DNA from: Oscillospiraceae bacterium
GTDB taxonomy: Bacteria; Bacillota; Clostridia; Saccharofermentanales; Saccharofermentanaceae
Length of the DNA stretch: 64,000 nucleotides
Assembly: GCA_902782235.1 (NCBI GenBank)
Contig: CACZML010000005.1
Location: 1,091 to 65,090 of the forward strand
Direction of reading: 5' to 3'
Numbering within the stretch: the first letter of the stretch is position 1; each line of letters begins with the position of its first letter. The translations under genes were made by a program, and so were the position numbers. The notes under the pieces are model-generated. The model ran no database searches and was not told the DNA's origin. It was given only the letters and a program-made list of their open reading frames with translations. This document shows, piece by piece, positions 12,347-20,580 of this stretch.

Positions 12347-14611
12347 TTAGCCGTCCTGAGGGTCATTGTCGAACGACATCGGATACTTTGTGTGATCGAA
12401 ATCCTCAATGAGTCTTTTGAACACTCCGTTAATCGCAGATTTATTGACCGCCTTTATAACAAAACTCATTCTGTAACGGCCCCTGAGCTCGTAAATGACA
12501 CACGGCATCGGACCATATACCTCAAACTGATACCTTTTATCCTGGAAACCCAGAAAGTCGTTAAGATACTTAGCTAATTCATTGGCTCTTCTGATAAGGA
12601 GATCCTCATCGGGCAAAGACAGGACGATCTCGCCTAACGCCTTATAAGGCGGGAGTTTTAATTTCTGTCTGTACTCTATCTCCTGATCGTAGAAAGCCCT
12701 GTAGTTCTGTGTGCATGCGAATTTGAACAGGGGCTGCTCCGGCCTATAGCTCTGGATAAATACTTTTCCGGGCGTATCTCCCCTTCCCGCTCTTCCTGCT
12801 GCCTGGGTAATAAGCTGGAAAGCTCTCTCGGAAGCCTTGAAAGATGAAGACGCAAGCATAAGATCTGCGCCAAGCACGCCTACGACAGTAACATCCGGGA
12901 AATCCAGGCCCTTTGCGATCATCTGCGTACCAATAAGAATCGAGGCTTCCTTGTTTGCAAACTTCTCGATTATCTCCTTATGAGCGCCGGGCGTCATTGT
13001 GGAATCCTGGTCCATTCTCAATACCTTCTCATGTGGGAAAGTACTGTGCAGGAATTCTTCGAGCTGCTGGGTTCCAAAACCCGCCTTGGTGAAGTGGTTG
13101 CTGTTGCAGAAAGAACACCTGGCTTCATAAGAAGGGATCGTATAACCGCAGTAATGGCATATGAGGCTCTGTGTACCATTGCGCCTGTTATTATGGAGCG
13201 TCATTGCAACAGAGCAGTTCTTGCAGGTAACCGGTTCTCCGCAGTCTTCACATACGAGAGTTCTCGAAAAGCCTCTTCTGTTAAGAAGCAGTATTACCTG
13301 TTTATTCTGGGAGAAAGCAACTGACATAGCCTGTCTGAGCGGAACAGATAACATGTCGCCGCTGCCGAGCTTTATCTGTTCCTTCATATCGACAGGGATT
13401 ATCTCAGGCAATGTTGCTTCAGATCTTGCCCTGTATTTAAGTTCGAGCATCTTATAAGCTCCAGCCTGTGCAGCATAAAAGCTCTCTATAGAAGGCGTTG
13501 CCGAACCAAGAACAACACTGCAGCCTGTGATCTTTGCTCTCATCCTTGCAATATCCCTTGCAGAATATCTCGGGTGGGATTCAGCTTTATACGAACCGTC
13601 GTGCTCCTCATCAAGGATTATCAGTCTCAGATTGACTGCCGGTGCAAAAACACCGCTTCTGGGGCCTACAATTACTCTGGCTTTTCCCGTTCTTATATTG
13701 TTCCATTGTTCATATCTTTGCTTATCCGTAAGCCTGCTGTGGAGAACAGCAACACTGTCGCCTAATCTTCCCTTGATCCAGTTGATCGTCTGGGGTGTAA
13801 GTGAGATCTCAGGAACCATGTAGATAACGCTTCCGCCCTCGCTTATTACCTTCTTGGCAATATTTAGATAGACCTCTGTCTTGCCGCTTCCTGTAATACC
13901 GAACAAAAGATAGGTGTTATCCTTCTTCGAATCTATTCCTTTAAGGATCTCATCTATAGCAATCTGCTGTTCATCGCTTAAGTCGTATTCTTCTGTGAAC
14001 TTTCCTTCAGGAATCTCATCCGGAATTGCAAGCCTTGGAACTTCATTATCAGAAGATTCCTTCAATAGTCTGATAAGCCCTTTATCTTCCAGCGCCTTGA
14101 CCTGGGCAGCAGAACATGAAAGCGACGACATGAGTTCTTTTCTGGTACACTTGCCGCGCTCTAAAAGATACTCAAGTATATTGATGTGGGCGGCAGATCT
14201 TAATATCTCACTGTCCAATACGTCCCTGGCAGTCTCAGCAGATACCAGCTCAACAAATACTTCCATTGGGTTCTTATGATTGACCACACAGGAAGGAACC
14301 ATCAGTTCGACGACATCACCTTTAGTACAATTGAATCTGTCTGAGATCTTATCGATAAGGGCTATCTGGTCAGGGTTAAGAACAGGCCTTGAGGATATGA
14401 AGGAAGCGATGTCTTTTATGCTTCCCTCATCACCTTCAAATGCTTCATTAATACCGACAATGACACCGCAGCGTTCAGCGTCACCTTTTCCGAAAGGCAC
14501 ATTAACCAGTGAACCGATATTTGCATCGGCTCTTAAATCTTCAGGCACACGATATGTATAAAGATTATCGGTCTGCCTGACGGCGCCTCTCAGGATAACG
14601 CTGCAGTACAT
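12347..14611 (-). CDS. priA: Primosomal protein N' (helicase)
   Basis: GITGSGKTEVY, PEISLT, DEEH, SATPS, two CxxC pairs, GTQMIAKGLDF and QAAGRAGR. Confidence 0.96.
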   Translation of the reverse strand: MYCSVILRGAVRQTDNLYTYRVPEDLRADANIGSLVNVPFGKGDAERCGVIVGINEAFEGDEGSIKDIASFISSRPVLNPDQIALIDKISDRFNCTKGDVVELMVPSCVVNHKNPMEVFVELVSAETARDVLDSEILRSAAHINILEYLLERGKCTRKELMSSLSCSAAQVKALEDKGLIRLLKESSDNEVPRLAIPDEIPEGKFTEEYDLSDEQQIAIDEILKGIDSKKDNTYLLFGITGSGKTEVYLNIAKKVISEGGSVIYMVPEISLTPQTINWIKGRLGDSVAVLHSRLTDKQRYEQWNNIRTGKARVIVGPRSGVFAPAVNLRLIILDEEHDGSYKAESHPRYSARDIARMRAKITGCSVVLGSATPSIESFYAAQAGAYKMLELKYRARSEATLPEIIPVDMKEQIKLGSGDMLSVPLRQAMSVAFSQNKQVILLLNRRGFSRTLVCEDCGEPVTCKNCSVAMTLHNNRRNGTQSLICHYCGYTIPSYEARCSFCNSNHFTKAGFGTQQLEEFLHSTFPHEKVLRMDQDSTMTPGAHKEIIEKFANKEASILIGTQMIAKGLDFPDVTVVGVLGADLMLASSSFKASERAFQLITQAAGRAGRGDTPGKVFIQSYRPEQPLFKFACTQNYRAFYDQEIEYRQKLKLPPYKALGEIVLSLPDEDLLIRRANELAKYLNDFLGFQDKRYQFEVYGPMPCVIYELRGRYRMSFVIKAVNKSAINGVFKRLIEDFDHTKYPMSFDNDPQDG

Positions 14612-14621
14612 GTAGCTTTCC

Positions 14622-17600
14622 TCACATCAGATCGAAAAGATTTATCTGGGCACTCTCGGGAAGGTCATCAAGAATACCGCCATAAGCTAAGAGCTTCTCG
14701 GTAACTGATTGACCTACACCGGTTCTCTTCATGAAGTCATCACGGTTCTTGAAAGGACCTGCTTCCCTTGCCTTCTCGATTGCTTCACCGTTTGCAGGTG
14801 AAACGGCGCTGATCGCACAGAAAGGAGGTCTGATCTTCTTCGGACCGGACTTCTTAAACTTCGTTCCCATGGAATCCTCAAGGGTAATGGGATCAAATGT
14901 AATTCCTCTGGCGTACATTTCCTCTACAAGCTCATAGAAATAGTACTTGAGCTTAGTATTCGGATCACCCTTGGCATGCATCTCATCAGCAAGTTCTATT
15001 CTTCTCTTCTTAACCTTTTCGGGGCCGTTGCACATGTCTTCCGCATTGAAAAGACCTTCTCCTCTGTTGGTAAAGAATGAGCAATAGTATTCCTCCGGAT
15101 AGTAGACCTTAAACCAGGCAACTCTCAATGTTGAGATTGCATAAGCTGCGGCATGCGCCTTAGGGAACATGTACTTGATCTTCTGGCAGGATTCGATATA
15201 CCAGTCAGGCACGCCGCAGTCTTTCATCTCCTTAACGTAGTCGGGCCATTTCTCAACCTTGCCGGCAGCAACTTTACCTTTACGTACACCTTCCATGATG
15301 TCAAATGCATCCTTATTGGGAAGTCCCCAGTAAATAAGGCTTGTCATGATGGAGTCACGGCATCCGATAACGGAATTAAGATCACATATGCCGTCCCTGA
15401 TAAGATCCTGTGCGTTGCCGGTCCATACGTCCGTACCGTGTGAAAGTCCCATGAGCTGTACAAGATCGTAGAACCTTGTAGGCTTAGTTTCCTTGATCAT
15501 GCCGCGGGCCATGTTTGTACCAAGCTCTGAAAGACCAAGCGTTGCTGAACCTGCATCAGTTGCATCTATAGGGAATCCCAAAGCATCCGTACCCGTAAGA
15601 AGGCTCATTACCTTCTCATCAGGAATCGGAATATCAGTTATGGTAACACCCGTAATATCACTTAACATTCTCAATACCGTAGGGTCTGCGTGACCTAAGA
15701 TATCGAGCTTTAAGATGGTATCGTGCATTGCACGGAAGTCGAAGTGCGTTGTAATTATTCCGCAGTCAGTCTTATTCGCCGGGAACTGGATAGGAGTAAA
15801 TTCATAAATATCCATTTCCTTGGCGATAACGACGATGCCGCCCGGGTGCTGGGATGTCGTACGCTTAACGCCGATGATGTCCCTTGCCATGAACGCAAGA
15901 TGAGCCTGTGTAAAGGGTTCGCCCTTCTCCTCACAGATCTTGCGGCATACACCATAAGCGTTCTTATCCTGGTAAGCACCGATCGTACCTGCCTTAAATG
16001 TATGTGTACCGCCGAAAAGCACGCCTACATAAGCATGAGCTCTCGGCTGGTATTCGCCTGAGAAGTTAAGATCGATATCTGGCTGCTTATCGCCTTTGAA
16101 TCCAAGGAATGTCTCGAAAGGAATATCCTGTCCGTCAGGTATCAACTTTTCGCCGCATTCAGGGCAGTTCTTAGGAGGCAGGTCGTAACCTGAACCGTAT
16201 TTACCTGAGTTATCGAACTCAGCGTAATTACACTTAGGGCATCTGTAATGCGGAGGCAGCGGGTTAACTTCGGAAATACCGCACATCGTAGCGGCAAACG
16301 AAGAACCTACCGAACCTCTGGAACCTACGACGTAACCGTCGTTATTTGACTTCTTAACAAGTCTGTACGCGATGTAGTACATGATCGCATAACCGTTACC
16401 GATAATGGATTCAAGCTCTCTGTCGAGTCTCGCCTTTACGACTTCATTAAGAACACCCTTATGGCGGTACATGCGGTTCGCTCTTGTGTAAGCAATATCT
16501 CTTACATCGGCAGCAGCTCTAGCGATCTGCGGAGGATAGGATCCGTCAGGGAAAGGCTTGATGCCGAAATCGATCATGTCTGCGATCTTATTGGTGTTGT
16601 CAACAACGACCTCCATCGCCTTTTCTTCACCAAGATACTTGAATTCCTCGAGCATCTCATCAGTGGTTCTGAAATACAGATCGGTCTGCATCTCAGCATC
16701 GCTAAATCCCATGCTCATGAGCATATACTTACGGTAACGTCCGTCTTCCTTATTTAAGAAATGGGAGTCCGTTGTCGCACAGCACATCATACCGTGATCA
16801 TCAGCGGTCTCGACGAGCAGTTCATTGATTACCTGAATATCATATTCATTCATTGCGACCGGTCCTGTATCAGACTTCGCAGGCTCCTGTCTTGTAATGA
16901 ACATGTTGTTGCAAAGAGGTTGGATCTCAACGTAATCATAGAGATTAAGGATCTTCTGGAACGTCTCGTCAGTCTTAAGAAACTCTCTTGTGGCATTTCT
17001 GTCCTTGCCAAGTTTCTTATATGACGAAATAACATATCTGTATATCTCGCCTCGCTCGCAGGCGCCACCGACGATAATACCGGACTTGAAATACTTCAAA
17101 AGGCTCTTTGGTGTTCTGGGTCGTCTTGAATAGTAATGAATCTGTGATTCAGAAACGATATGGTAAAGGTTATACAGACCCATATTAGAACGAACAAGAT
17201 ATATTATGTGATACAAAGGTGATTCAGCAAAAGCACCGTTCTTTTTTGTTGATTTGATCCTTTCCGGTGTATAGTGACCAACTGAATAATTGATCTTGAG
17301 AGCGTCAACGGTATTGGCATCCTTAAGGCATGCTACAAGAAGCGACGCTGACTTATAGCAGGCTGTGAACATCTCATCGAATTCATCACCTGCCGTACTG
17401 TAAACGAAGTCTGCGCCCTTAGCGGAAAGCAGGTCATCTACGTTCTTATATTCACCCTTGTAATAAGTCTCAAGAATATCCTCATCAGTCGTTGCAGGCA
17501 TGAGGAACTTATGCCTGTAGTAAACGTGATCTTCAATATTGATGCCGTATCCTGCACGGCGCAGGAAAGCCAATGTCGTAAAGGCATCAGGTCCTGTAAT

Positions 17601-19547
17601 ATAGGAATCGCCTATGAATTCCAAAAGCTCACCCATCGCGAAATAAGAATCACAGGGCTCGCCTGTTCCGGGATAAATAATATCCTCAAACTCAGCATGG
17701 AAATCCGCAACATGCTCAAAGACAAGTTCTTCAGGAACAATTTCATCTGAGCCGTCAGCATATTCACCTGTTATATCAAGATCAGCGTTGATTGTCTGAC
17801 CTAAAAGTTCGTGAGGTTCCAAAGGTTTTATAGAGATATTCTCATCACTGAGACTCTCAGGGATCTCATCGGGATTCCAAAGTGACTTATCGATATCGTG
17901 AGATGCGAATTCCATTGCATCCTGGTCTGATTCGCCCTCTTCTTCAGGCTTAACAGCCTTATATCCCTTAAGTCTGAACTTGGATGCGCAAACGGACGTA
18001 AATGTATCACGAAGCGCATCGTCACCGTTGCGGTTGATAACGACAGAAACAAATGAACCTACAGCCTTTGGCTTCTCAATAAAGTTCAAAGAAGCATCGT
18101 CATCCGCATCTGATGGCTTTATCTTATCGTTCTTAACATCGTAAGGCAGGTTATAGAAAACAGTCGGGCCGTCTTCAACAAGATAACCTTCACAACCAAG
18201 GATACATTTGATAGGAGCCTCTCCGGTGTCCTTACGCTTTTTATTTATACCTTTGGCAGCTTCGAAAACATGAGGGAACGCCTGAACTACGCCATGGTCA
18301 GTAACAGCGCATGCAGTATGGCCAAACTGAGCTGCTAGCTTGATAAGATCGGCAGGATCCGTTGTAGCGTCACTCTCGCTCATCTTGGTATGCACGTGAA
18401 GTTCAACTCTCTTGCGCTCTGCCTTATCCTTCCTCTTAGGAGGTTTTTCAGCGCTGAAGAATCCTGAGACTCTTAATGTCTTATCACCAGTAAATGAATC
18501 GTTCTCGACATTGCCCTGAATACCGATAAAGCCGCCTTTTCCGTATTCCTTCTGGAATCCGTCAGCTTCTTCGGGTTTTAAAAATGCAATACATGAAATA
18601 CCGTCAGTATCGTCAAGACACATGAACTTAACGATTACGCTCTTACCTGTTTTCGCAAGCTTAAAACTATCCTCATTAAATGAAATATCGCCGGCAATAT
18701 TTACATCGAAGCAGCCTACTGTGAGGTTTGCGATCTTCATGAATGTAGCCTGCTTCTTTACGCGGCCATATAACTGGTTCTCAGCATTCTCCTTGGATCT
18801 GTAGAAAGATTGCTTGTCTTCCTGCTTTGCTTCTTTTCTTGCGAGCTCAGCCTTGGCTGCCCAGGAATCCTTGCCTGCAGGCTTTGCATCAGGAACCTTG
18901 GCTTCATCAGCCTTCTTTTTCTTTGTTCCCTTCTTGCCCTGTTCTTCAACGGGTTCATCTTCAGGGAATTCAAGTCTTCCTTCCTCAATAGCTTTAAGGA
19001 TGTCGTCTTCAGCCGCCACGTCGCTTCCTGCAACATCAGGATCGTTTGTAATGATCTCATATTGGAATGAGATCTGGTCTGAAACGCAGATATGAATAGC
19101 ATTATTAACAGCGGAAATGAGATCTTTCCTGTCAGATTCACTGAGCATCATTGCCCAGCCTGACGGAATCTCAATATTTACGGTGCTGAAATCCTCACCG
19201 AAATTGAGGTTAATAAAATCAACCAGATCACTAATACCACCCTCGCTGTCGCGGGCGATGTAATGATTAACAAGGCCTCTGATATGGTCGTAGAGGCTTA
19301 AGAAATTACCTGAATTAACATCCTTGAATGTGAAGTTAACTTTTGTACCGAAATCATGCTCAAGTTCTTCAACAAGACTTACCAGACTCCTGTTATCCTT
19401 AATGGTCTCAACACCTTCAAGGATAATATTGATGGAAGCTTTAGCCTTGTAAATATCGACCTTGACTACCGTAAGGTCTAAAAGATCCTGATATCTGTCA
19501 TCACCTACATTGAAAAGTTCAAGTAGTCTTACGCTTTTCTTCTCCAA
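14622..19547 (-). CDS. polC: DNA polymerase III PolC (1641 aa, longer than usual; exonuclease domain degenerate)
   Basis: OB fold, PHP RVELHVH/TDHG, RGSVGSS, Zn ribbon HYRCPKC/CPECG, catalytic PDIDLNFS and KLDILGH, YMFPKAHA. Confidence 0.97.
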   Translation of the reverse strand: MEKKSVRLLELFNVGDDRYQDLLDLTVVKVDIYKAKASINIILEGVETIKDNRSLVSLVEELEHDFGTKVNFTFKDVNSGNFLSLYDHIRGLVNHYIARDSEGGISDLVDFINLNFGEDFSTVNIEIPSGWAMMLSESDRKDLISAVNNAIHICVSDQISFQYEIITNDPDVAGSDVAAEDDILKAIEEGRLEFPEDEPVEEQGKKGTKKKKADEAKVPDAKPAGKDSWAAKAELARKEAKQEDKQSFYRSKENAENQLYGRVKKQATFMKIANLTVGCFDVNIAGDISFNEDSFKLAKTGKSVIVKFMCLDDTDGISCIAFLKPEEADGFQKEYGKGGFIGIQGNVENDSFTGDKTLRVSGFFSAEKPPKRKDKAERKRVELHVHTKMSESDATTDPADLIKLAAQFGHTACAVTDHGVVQAFPHVFEAAKGINKKRKDTGEAPIKCILGCEGYLVEDGPTVFYNLPYDVKNDKIKPSDADDDASLNFIEKPKAVGSFVSVVINRNGDDALRDTFTSVCASKFRLKGYKAVKPEEEGESDQDAMEFASHDIDKSLWNPDEIPESLSDENISIKPLEPHELLGQTINADLDITGEYADGSDEIVPEELVFEHVADFHAEFEDIIYPGTGEPCDSYFAMGELLEFIGDSYITGPDAFTTLAFLRRAGYGINIEDHVYYRHKFLMPATTDEDILETYYKGEYKNVDDLLSAKGADFVYSTAGDEFDEMFTACYKSASLLVACLKDANTVDALKINYSVGHYTPERIKSTKKNGAFAESPLYHIIYLVRSNMGLYNLYHIVSESQIHYYSRRPRTPKSLLKYFKSGIIVGGACERGEIYRYVISSYKKLGKDRNATREFLKTDETFQKILNLYDYVEIQPLCNNMFITRQEPAKSDTGPVAMNEYDIQVINELLVETADDHGMMCCATTDSHFLNKEDGRYRKYMLMSMGFSDAEMQTDLYFRTTDEMLEEFKYLGEEKAMEVVVDNTNKIADMIDFGIKPFPDGSYPPQIARAAADVRDIAYTRANRMYRHKGVLNEVVKARLDRELESIIGNGYAIMYYIAYRLVKKSNNDGYVVGSRGSVGSSFAATMCGISEVNPLPPHYRCPKCNYAEFDNSGKYGSGYDLPPKNCPECGEKLIPDGQDIPFETFLGFKGDKQPDIDLNFSGEYQPRAHAYVGVLFGGTHTFKAGTIGAYQDKNAYGVCRKICEEKGEPFTQAHLAFMARDIIGVKRTTSQHPGGIVVIAKEMDIYEFTPIQFPANKTDCGIITTHFDFRAMHDTILKLDILGHADPTVLRMLSDITGVTITDIPIPDEKVMSLLTGTDALGFPIDATDAGSATLGLSELGTNMARGMIKETKPTRFYDLVQLMGLSHGTDVWTGNAQDLIRDGICDLNSVIGCRDSIMTSLIYWGLPNKDAFDIMEGVRKGKVAAGKVEKWPDYVKEMKDCGVPDWYIESCQKIKYMFPKAHAAAYAISTLRVAWFKVYYPEEYYCSFFTNRGEGLFNAEDMCNGPEKVKKRRIELADEMHAKGDPNTKLKYYFYELVEEMYARGITFDPITLEDSMGTKFKKSGPKKIRPPFCAISAVSPANGEAIEKAREAGPFKNRDDFMKRTGVGQSVTEKLLAYGGILDDLPESAQINLFDLM

Positions 19548-20580
19548 CTCTGATCACTTCCCTTACAAATTCGTCGACTGCTGCGGATGCTGGAATCTTC
19601 CTGACCGGCTCGCCCTTCTCAAATAAGACAAATTCGTCGATGCCGCCGGCTAATCCTATATCACATTCGCGAGCCTCACCCGGGCCGTTGACGACACAAC
19701 CCATAACTGCAACCTTAAGGTTATAGGGAAGTTGGGAGACCTTCTCTTCTATCTGTCCGGCAAGTTCAATGAGCGGAACCTGTGTTCTGCCGCATGTGGG
19801 ACAGGATATAAAAGTAATGCCACCATCTCTTAAGTCAAGAGCTTTGAGGATCTGCTTAGCTGTAATAACTTCATCAACAGGGTTACCTGTAAGAGAAACT
19901 CTAATGGTATCACCGATGCCTTCGGCAAGAAGCGCACCGATACCGACAGCTGATTTGATAGCTCCCTCACGAACGGTACCTGCCTCGGTAACGCCCACGT
20001 GAAGAGGATAATCGCATGATCTGGACAAGATCCTGTATGTATCGATAGTAAGCTTGGGTGAAGATGATTTGATAGATATTACGATATCATCGAAATCCTG
20101 GTCTTCCAAAAGCTTAACAGCTCCCAAAGCACTCTCTGTCATTGCATCTGCATTGACTTCACCATACTTGGCAAGGATCTCTCTGGAAATGGAACCGGAG
20201 TTAACACCGACGCGGATCGGAATATGACGTTCCTTACATTTATCCGCAACAAGTTTAACCTTATCGGGTCCGCCTATATTACCCGGATTGATCCTGATCT
20301 TCGAAGCACCATTGTCGGCCGCTGCCAAAGCAAGTCTGTAATCGAAATGGATGTCAGCAACTACCGGTATGGGAGATTTTGATGTGATCTCCTTAAGACT
20401 TAATGCCGCTTCCATGTCGGGGATTGCAACTCTGGTAATGTCACAACCGTTATCAGCAAGTTCCTTTATCTGAGCAAGGGTAGCCTTCGCATCCCTTGTG
20501 TCAGTATTATTCATCGACTGGATCTTAACTGAAGAACCGCCGCCGACTTCAACATTACCGATAAAGACTTTCTTTGTCAT
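19519..20580 (-). CDS. ispG: (E)-4-hydroxy-3-methylbut-2-enyl-diphosphate synthase
   Basis: IQSM, ADIHF, RINPGN, HVGVTEAG, SCPTCGR and MGCVVNGPGE. Confidence 0.96.
   Translation of the reverse strand: MTKKVFIGNVEVGGGSSVKIQSMNNTDTRDAKATLAQIKELADNGCDITRVAIPDMEAALSLKEITSKSPIPVVADIHFDYRLALAAADNGASKIRINPGNIGGPDKVKLVADKCKERHIPIRVGVNSGSISREILAKYGEVNADAMTESALGAVKLLEDQDFDDIVISIKSSSPKLTIDTYRILSRSCDYPLHVGVTEAGTVREGAIKSAVGIGALLAEGIGDTIRVSLTGNPVDEVITAKQILKALDLRDGGITFISCPTCGRTQVPLIELAGQIEEKVSQLPYNLKVAVMGCVVNGPGEARECDIGLAGGIDEFVLFEKGEPVRKIPASAAVDEFVREVIRVGEEKRKTT

Follow-up and report, generated by a model that had tools for sequence, protein, structure and literature searches.

A PolC of rumen Clostridia with a retained and expanded DnaQ-fold domain that appears to have lost its exonuclease site

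The window described here is a stretch of 64,000 nucleotides from the Oscillospiraceae bacterium assembly GCA_902782235.1 (contig CACZML010000005.1, positions 1,091 to 65,090), and it carries a polC gene on its minus strand (14622..19547; all coordinates below refer to the window, and all features lie on that strand). The DnaQ-type insert is commonly treated as the defining feature of PolC and as its proofreader. In the PolC of the window this domain keeps its fold and evolves under strong purifying selection, and each of the five residues of its DEDDh catalytic pentad is substituted, which almost certainly leaves the site dead. The metal site of the surrounding PHP domain is intact, and the dead domain has gained an acidic insertion found only in its own clade. 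The 3'-5' proofreading of this replicase may reside in the PHP domain, with the former exonuclease kept in a non-catalytic role.

Results

Catalytic residues of the inserted domain

The inserted domain spans aa (amino acids) 497-772 (17232..18059). As the reference we used the PolC of genome G005, the closest canonical one, which belongs to the same family and another genus and matches RNase_T with an E-value of 2.4e-28. The two domains were aligned by MAFFT and by hhalign profile-profile comparison, and the scaffold flanking the motifs is clearly common to both (e.g. FLRQAGFDIDIEKHERYRVKF versus FLRRAGYGINIEDHVYYRHKF). The ExoI motif FVAVDVETTG of G005 reads FVSVVINRNG in the window (aa 499-508; 18024..18053), with the aspartate replaced by V503 and the glutamate by N505. 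In ExoII, GHNVLFD is changed to GPDAFTT, within the remnant ITGPDAFTT (aa 650-658; 17574..17600), and the histidine, asparagine and aspartate become P653, D654 and T658, respectively. The ExoIII motif HRAVSD corresponds, by the hhalign columns, to DEMFTA (aa 724-729; 17361..17378), where the histidine is replaced by D724 and the aspartate by A729. The pentad positions thus read V503, N505, T658, D724 and A729, five substitutions out of five.

The loss is fixed in the clade. No more than two of the five DEDDh residues are kept in any of 103 full-length clade homologues. The ExoIII histidine is found in none of them, the position of the ExoI glutamate is occupied by lysine or arginine in 60, and the former ligand positions 503, 505, 658, 724 and 729 vary freely. 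A Pfam scan at E<=10 of the domain alone, with or without its insertion, detected neither RNase_T (PF00929) nor any other family, while the G005 domain, the positive control of the same run, matched RNase_T at 2.8e-28. An alternative DEDD tetrad was also sought, and the old pocket holds no invariant acidic residue; the invariant carboxylates of the domain sit in its insertion. Judged by these residues, the DEDDh site of the window PolC is almost certainly catalytically dead.

The same had been proposed in a first-pass annotation of this DNA, for a span (17330-18060) that corresponds to aa 496-740 and falls within the domain inserted in the PHP domain. Its substituted ExoI and ExoII motifs lie where it placed them, the ExoIII HRAxxD motif that it could not recognise corresponds to DEMFTA at the aligned site, and the polymerase motifs that it called intact, PDID and KLDIL, were located at aa 1156 and aa 1280 (the latter as KLDILGH). 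Its further claim, that the fold is kept, agrees with the comparisons that follow.

Fold of the inserted domain

The inserted domain and the canonical PolC exonuclease are homologous, and the DnaQ fold is kept. In hhalign, a profile of 31 diverse clade domains aligned over the whole domain with three canonical exonuclease domains of the same order (99% probability, E-value 7.2e-18). The AlphaFold2 model of aa 462-782 has a mean predicted local distance difference test score (pLDDT) of 83.5 and a predicted template-modelling score of 0.82. Its best Foldseek matches are DEDDh nucleases only, all with a probability of 1.0 or close to it: RNase T, DnaQ (8H18/8H2F), the exonuclease domain of S. aureus DinG, PolC 9QPC and the exonuclease domain of T. 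maritima PolC (2P1J). The template-modelling (TM) scores of these matches, normalised to the target, are ~0.5. When the domain profile was compared with the sequences of the PDB, the sole match, to DnaQ 8H18 at E 0.37, was suggestive but below threshold and non-significant, so the relationship had to be established by profile-profile and fold comparisons.

The acidic insertion

The window domain has gained ~75 residues (aa 532-606; 17730..17954), placed between the beta2 and beta3 strands of the DnaQ fold. In the MAFFT alignment this insertion is missing from the canonical domains and from two other dead domains of the order, described below. Invariant in the clade are E537-G-E539, A544, D551-I-D553, E561 and P605, with a near-invariant SLW; the two short acidic motifs supply four invariant carboxylates (E537, E539, D551 and D553). 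The net charge of the insertion is about -17, and for an 85-residue segment around it the charge ranges from -12 to -21 in the clade, with -21 in the window's own copy. The insertion has a pLDDT of 69-75 in the model of the isolated domain and of 77-87 in a 1200-residue model of the enzyme, and its C-terminal part forms extra strands modelled with high confidence. When 1.84 billion representative proteins were searched with a profile of the insertion, five clusters only were matched, all of them PolCs of the same clade or fragments thereof, and no donor was found.

Selection on the dead domain

The ratio of nonsynonymous to synonymous substitution rates (dN/dS) of the domain, calculated against the 13 close relatives with measurable dS, is 0.04-0.08, and these values are if anything overestimated because dS is near saturation. 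Distant clade members share 73% identity over aa 607-690, compared with 77-79% for the polymerase core. The ratio of identities in the exonuclease domain and the core is 0.65 within the clade and 0.56-0.68 between canonical PolCs of sister lineages, whereas it falls to 0.29-0.42 when dead domains are compared with canonical ones. The purifying selection on the dead domain is as tight as that on the active domains of the sister lineages. The dN/dS values and identity ratios together therefore point to a burst of change followed by new constraint, and by this substitution pattern the dead domain is taken to be functional and not decaying.

Distribution and repeated inactivation

A protein search recovered 112 clusters, all of them PolC-like and without PF00929, with Saccharofermentans sp. 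and Ruminococcaceae bacterium YAD3003, KH2T8 and YRB3002 among the source names. Relatives of the domain are encoded in 94 stretches of GTDB species-representative genomes, with 78 distinct loci kept; nearly all are from the rumen or herbivore gut, and the isolates AB4001, YAD3003, KHP2 and YRB3002 are included. Of 61 sampled genomes of the order, 15 belong to the window's genus, and all 15 have the domain.

A canonical RNase_T domain within PolC was found in the sister genus (G005) and in examined members of families f2 and f3. Two further kinds of PolC have a full-size domain with destroyed catalytic motifs and no insertion: those of family f4 (1512-1546 aa; G004, G012, G020 and G008) and that of G006, a member of family f2 (1552 aa). 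RNase_T still recognises the G006 domain weakly (5.5e-8) and the f4 domains not at all. In the maximum-likelihood tree of the PolC core, the window clade is sister to canonical G005 (support 100/100), G006 is sister to canonical G002 (97/94), and f4 is placed separately; the identity among the three dead domains is only 18-22%. The tree and the low identity contradict a single ancestral loss common to the window clade, f4 and G006, and therefore indicate at least three independent inactivations of DnaQ within the order. Unlike the domain of the window clade, that of f4 is still evolving fast (exonuclease/core identity ratio 0.34).

The order thus presents a graded series, with an active domain in the sister lineages, a dead one still recognised by RNase_T in G006, a dead and fast-evolving one in f4, and a dead one that has been re-stabilised and expanded in the window clade. 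Elsewhere in the class the exonuclease domain has been deleted outright: 39 of 301 sampled Clostridia genomes are without any RNase_T, and 12 complete Exo-less PolCs from other families of Clostridia measure 1200-1300 aa. In the four of these whose PHP region was read, a linker of ~16-30 residues joins the PHP halves.

Some clade members, not including the window's own genome, have a second polC-like gene of ~1250-1265 aa (AB4001 G359:C1:218014-221676; P0101, P0104 and P0105). Its product has no N-terminal domain (NTD) and no OB domain, and it keeps the pseudo-exonuclease domain, the acidic insertion and the full set of PHP ligands. The polymerase motifs are destroyed (PDID is changed to PRFP or PYFY, and KLDILGH to EQEIIGY). 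Being polymerase-dead, DnaQ-dead and PHP-intact by its residues, this protein is a candidate stand-alone PHP nuclease.

The PHP metal site

The PHP domain of the window PolC is interrupted by the inserted domain. Its N-terminal half (aa 376-470; 18138..18422) is matched by Pfam PHP and contributes H384, H386, D393, H418 and E453, in the motifs ELHVHT, SESDA, TDHG and GCEGY, and its C-terminal half (aa 773-1000; 16548..17231) contributes H780, C830, D927 and H929. All nine metal ligands (HHDHEHCDH) are thus intact. The same nonad is complete in 102 of the 103 clade PolCs (in the remaining sequence the last two ligands fall in a gap), and all the DnaQ-dead or Exo-less PolCs examined have it intact. 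So does the DnaE1 of the genome (contig C12), an equivalog of NF005298, with the nonad HHDHEHCDH. The open reading frame (ORF) of this DnaE1 (stretch L002, 354-3497) encodes 1048 aa and ends at profile position 1036 of 1151; its C-terminal domain is seemingly missing or truncated by a stop, which is either a real feature or an assembly error.

The polC gene and its surroundings

The gene, taken from the ORF list and its translation, encodes 1641 aa from a TTG start and scores above the cut-offs of two NCBIfam PolC equivalogs (NF001688, 1235.7 bits for a cut-off of 873; TIGR01405, 1110.8 bits for a cut-off of 1043.45). Both matches consist of two stretches, with the exonuclease part of the profile skipped. 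Over the whole protein the Pfam matches are PHP, DNA_pol3_alpha, the finger domain and HHH_6; RNase_T is not among them. In the alignment to E. faecium PolC (9QPC), residues 311-471 correspond to 292-443 and residues 773-1641 to 634-1474, and ~300 residues stand in the place of the ~190-residue exonuclease domain. The AlphaFold model of aa 376-1575 (1200 aa, pLDDT 77) has full-length PolC 9QPC_A as its best match (E-value 4e-66, TM 0.61). The polymerase core, (HhH)2 and C-terminus (aa 1001-1641; 14625..16547) were delimited by Pfam and by alignment to 9QPC and 3F2B; they include the catalytic PDID (aa 1156-1159; 16071-16082), KLDILGH and, at the C-terminus, a clamp-binding-like motif, QINLF (14634-14648). 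Residues ~195-245 form a low-complexity linker rich in Lys, Ala and Glu that separates the NTD and the OB domain.

The neighbouring genes, identified by Pfam (M50 protease RseP, GcpE and PriA), give polC a replication context in the order rseP-ispG-polC-priA, all on one strand, with rseP and ispG (19519-20580) upstream and priA (12347-14611) downstream. From its predicted TTG start, polC shares 29 nucleotides (19519-19547) with the end of ispG. The source genome (2.55 Mb, 210 contigs, 92% complete) has one PolC and one DnaE1. The gene is most likely the resident, orthologous replicative polC of a clade of Saccharofermentans-like rumen Clostridia.

Discussion

In the mechanism that we propose, the DnaQ-type (DEDDh) proofreading domain of PolC has turned into a pseudo-enzyme, 3'-5' proofreading would be carried out by the PHP domain of PolC itself, and the dead domain, located in the PHP loop that walls the active-site groove, would be kept as a structural, primer-guiding or partner-binding module. 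The PHP domain of M. tuberculosis DnaE1 is an essential proofreader whose trinuclear zinc site is formed by the same nonad, and in PolC the DnaQ insert sits in a loop bordering the PHP active-site groove (PMC5636811). Clostridial PolC and DnaE1 usually bear 'active' PHP sites (PMC12926913). From the intact nonad and the position of the insert in the loop walling the groove we infer that the PHP domain may be the substitute proofreader in PolC. Taken as a whole, a pseudo-exonuclease kept as scaffold or guide next to a proofreading PHP site is probably the right description, though by no means a certain one.

Several points weigh against this description. An intact set of ligands is necessary but not sufficient for PHP exonuclease activity. 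The canonical sister PolCs also retain the full nonad, so its conservation is no evidence of compensation. Proofreading could be supplied in trans, or PolC may not be the main replicase, and the carboxylates E537, E539, D551 and D553 may constitute a non-canonical catalytic or metal site.

A stronger claim would be that the dead domain has been repurposed and not merely tolerated, that the acidic insertion is a new functional module on the replicase, and that the recurrent inactivations reflect selection for PHP-only proofreading and not drift; this is possible, and we put it forward tentatively. The insertion could act as a wall or guide directing the 3' end of the primer to the PHP nuclease, or as a DNA-mimicking or partner-docking element.

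The alternative that survives best is a PolC without intrinsic proofreading, whose fidelity comes in trans from the PHP site of DnaE1, from a stand-alone exonuclease or from mismatch repair alone. The means are available: the PHP nonad of DnaE1 is intact, each of 13 genomes of the window's genus has MutS1, and in B. subtilis the proofreading of DnaE3 can come in trans from the PolC exonuclease (cited in PMC12926913). The genome also encodes a KapD-like DEDDh exonuclease of 352 aa (contig C1, stretch L001, 1069-2127) with DMEW and HSATAD motifs and a C-terminal Cys-rich region (CPLCNSKL...CREHGE). This is its sole RNase_T gene. The first-pass annotation had pointed to a separate dnaQ and dnaE as genes to look for, and the search of the genome returned one DnaE1 and, besides the KapD-like gene, no dnaQ, hence no clade-specific substitute. 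The scores of the KapD-like protein lie far under all the curated DnaQ cut-offs. Across the order, including relatives with a canonical PolC, there are RNase_T ORFs of 309-390 aa, likened to it by size, and because ORFs of similar size accompany canonical PolC we rejected the KapD-like protein as a compensating acquisition. The PolC nonad itself also argues against fidelity in trans: it is invariant in the clade, which is unexpected for a purely structural PHP domain, since the structural PHP domains of E. coli and DnaE3 lose ligands (PMC3919608). On this evidence we consider proofreading purely in trans unlikely.

One genome of the same genus (G029:C32, stretch L111, 1042-1704) carries a gene for a 220-aa canonical DEDDh exonuclease (FDLETTG, GHNIRNFD and HRALAD) with a C-terminal zinc ribbon, next to a 174-aa ORF that looks Fic/DOC-like by eye. 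Within the genus the exonuclease gene occurs sporadically, with strong extra RNase_T matches in G013 and G021, and the window's genome does not have it.

Another possibility is that DnaE1 is the bulk replicase and PolC a specialised enzyme of lower fidelity, in which loss of the proofreader is tolerated or selected. Such a division of labour was raised by Timinskas & Venclovas for Clostridia with PolC and DnaE1, the only setting in which Exo-less PolCs occur (PMC3919608), and the recurrence of DnaQ inactivation in the order would fit it. Against it stand the 77-79% identity of the PolC core across the clade, the retention of the catalytic Asp residues, the PHP nonad and the C-terminal QINLF, the adjoining priA, and the presence of PolC in every searched genome of the genus, which together make a specialised role rather improbable.

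The domain might also still act as a hydrolase through non-canonical residues such as the carboxylates of EGE...DID, so that proofreading would have stayed in aa 497-772. Four invariant acidic residues within 17 positions of the insertion, the strong purifying selection on the domain and the rise of the insertion pLDDT to 77-87 in the context of the whole enzyme are in line with such a site. The insertion, however, lies in the beta2-beta3 hairpin, which by DnaQ topology should be at the sheet's far end as seen from the ExoI/II/III pocket; in that pocket no acidic residue is invariant and the five former ligand positions vary, and the insertion has homologues in same-clade PolCs only. A catalytic role of this kind is therefore quite improbable. 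An artefact (pseudogene, mis-assembly or chance misalignment of a normal exonuclease domain), which a 92%-complete assembly in 210 contigs might suggest, is ruled out for practical purposes by the intact reading frame of 1641 aa, the dN/dS of 0.04-0.08 and the same architecture in 112 protein clusters and 94 genome stretches, cultured isolates included.

The clade bears directly on the question of which domain proofreads in this replicase, and also on a non-catalytic role of DnaQ within it. A 2026 survey of ~3000 complete genomes, in which DnaQ domains were scored by the DEDDh signature, reported that the DnaQ proofreader is never the inactivated one in Pol III alpha subunits (PMC12926913), and a large rumen clade appears to do what the survey says never occurs. 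Some surveys take an RNase_T insert as the criterion for picking PolC sequences (PMC11963600), so that variants like the window PolC are invisible to them. Loss of the PolC exonuclease in Clostridia has been known since 2014, but as a deletion (PMC3919608); in the literature searched we found no earlier description of a pseudo-DnaQ domain that is retained, selected and expanded in PolC. As the DnaQ site is lost while the PHP site is intact, the clade is a natural test of the proofreading domain, and since cultured isolates exist (several of them in the Hungate collection), it can serve as a natural mutant for the question of a PHP proofreader in PolC.

Comparison with known systems

The window PolC has the same order of domains (NTD, OB, split PHP, Pol3 core and (HhH)2) as the canonical PolCs of B. 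subtilis and S. aureus and the structures 3F2B (G. kaustophilus) and 9QPC (E. faecium), and it shares with them the DnaQ-fold insert in PHP, the polymerase's catalytic residues and the PHP nonad. It differs in the insert, which is without the DEDDh residues (D431 and E433 of E. faecium correspond to V503 and N505), is not seen by the RNase_T hidden Markov model, and is longer by the ~75 residues of the acidic insertion. The hallmark of PolC, an insert with active DEDDh 3'-5' exonuclease, thus appears to be missing here.

The Exo-less PolCs of Clostridia and Negativicutes make up 6% of PolCs and 16% of those in systems with PolC and DnaE1 (Timinskas & Venclovas 2014, PMC3919608). They belong to the same class as the window PolC and resemble it in the apparent lack of a working DnaQ proofreader, the DnaE1 partner, and a PHP nonad intact in both polymerases. 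In the Exo-less enzymes, however, the inserted domain is physically absent, whereas the window clade retains a domain of ~276 aa, enlarged and under purifying selection.

With the PHP exonucleases of M. tuberculosis DnaE1 and T. thermophilus Pol III alpha the window PolC shares the nine-residue metal site HHDHEH[C/H]DH. PHP exonuclease activity has been demonstrated in DnaE1-type enzymes and not in any PolC. In DnaE1 a loop of 29 residues walls the PHP groove, whereas in the window PolC a whole dead DnaQ domain occupies that loop (PMC5636811). A parallel for the fate of the domain is found in Pol I orthologues (e.g. Taq, B. subtilis and H. pylori), in which a DnaQ-like proofreading domain is kept in the polymerase chain as a non-catalytic structural domain; those enzymes are A-family repair polymerases, unlike the PolC described here.

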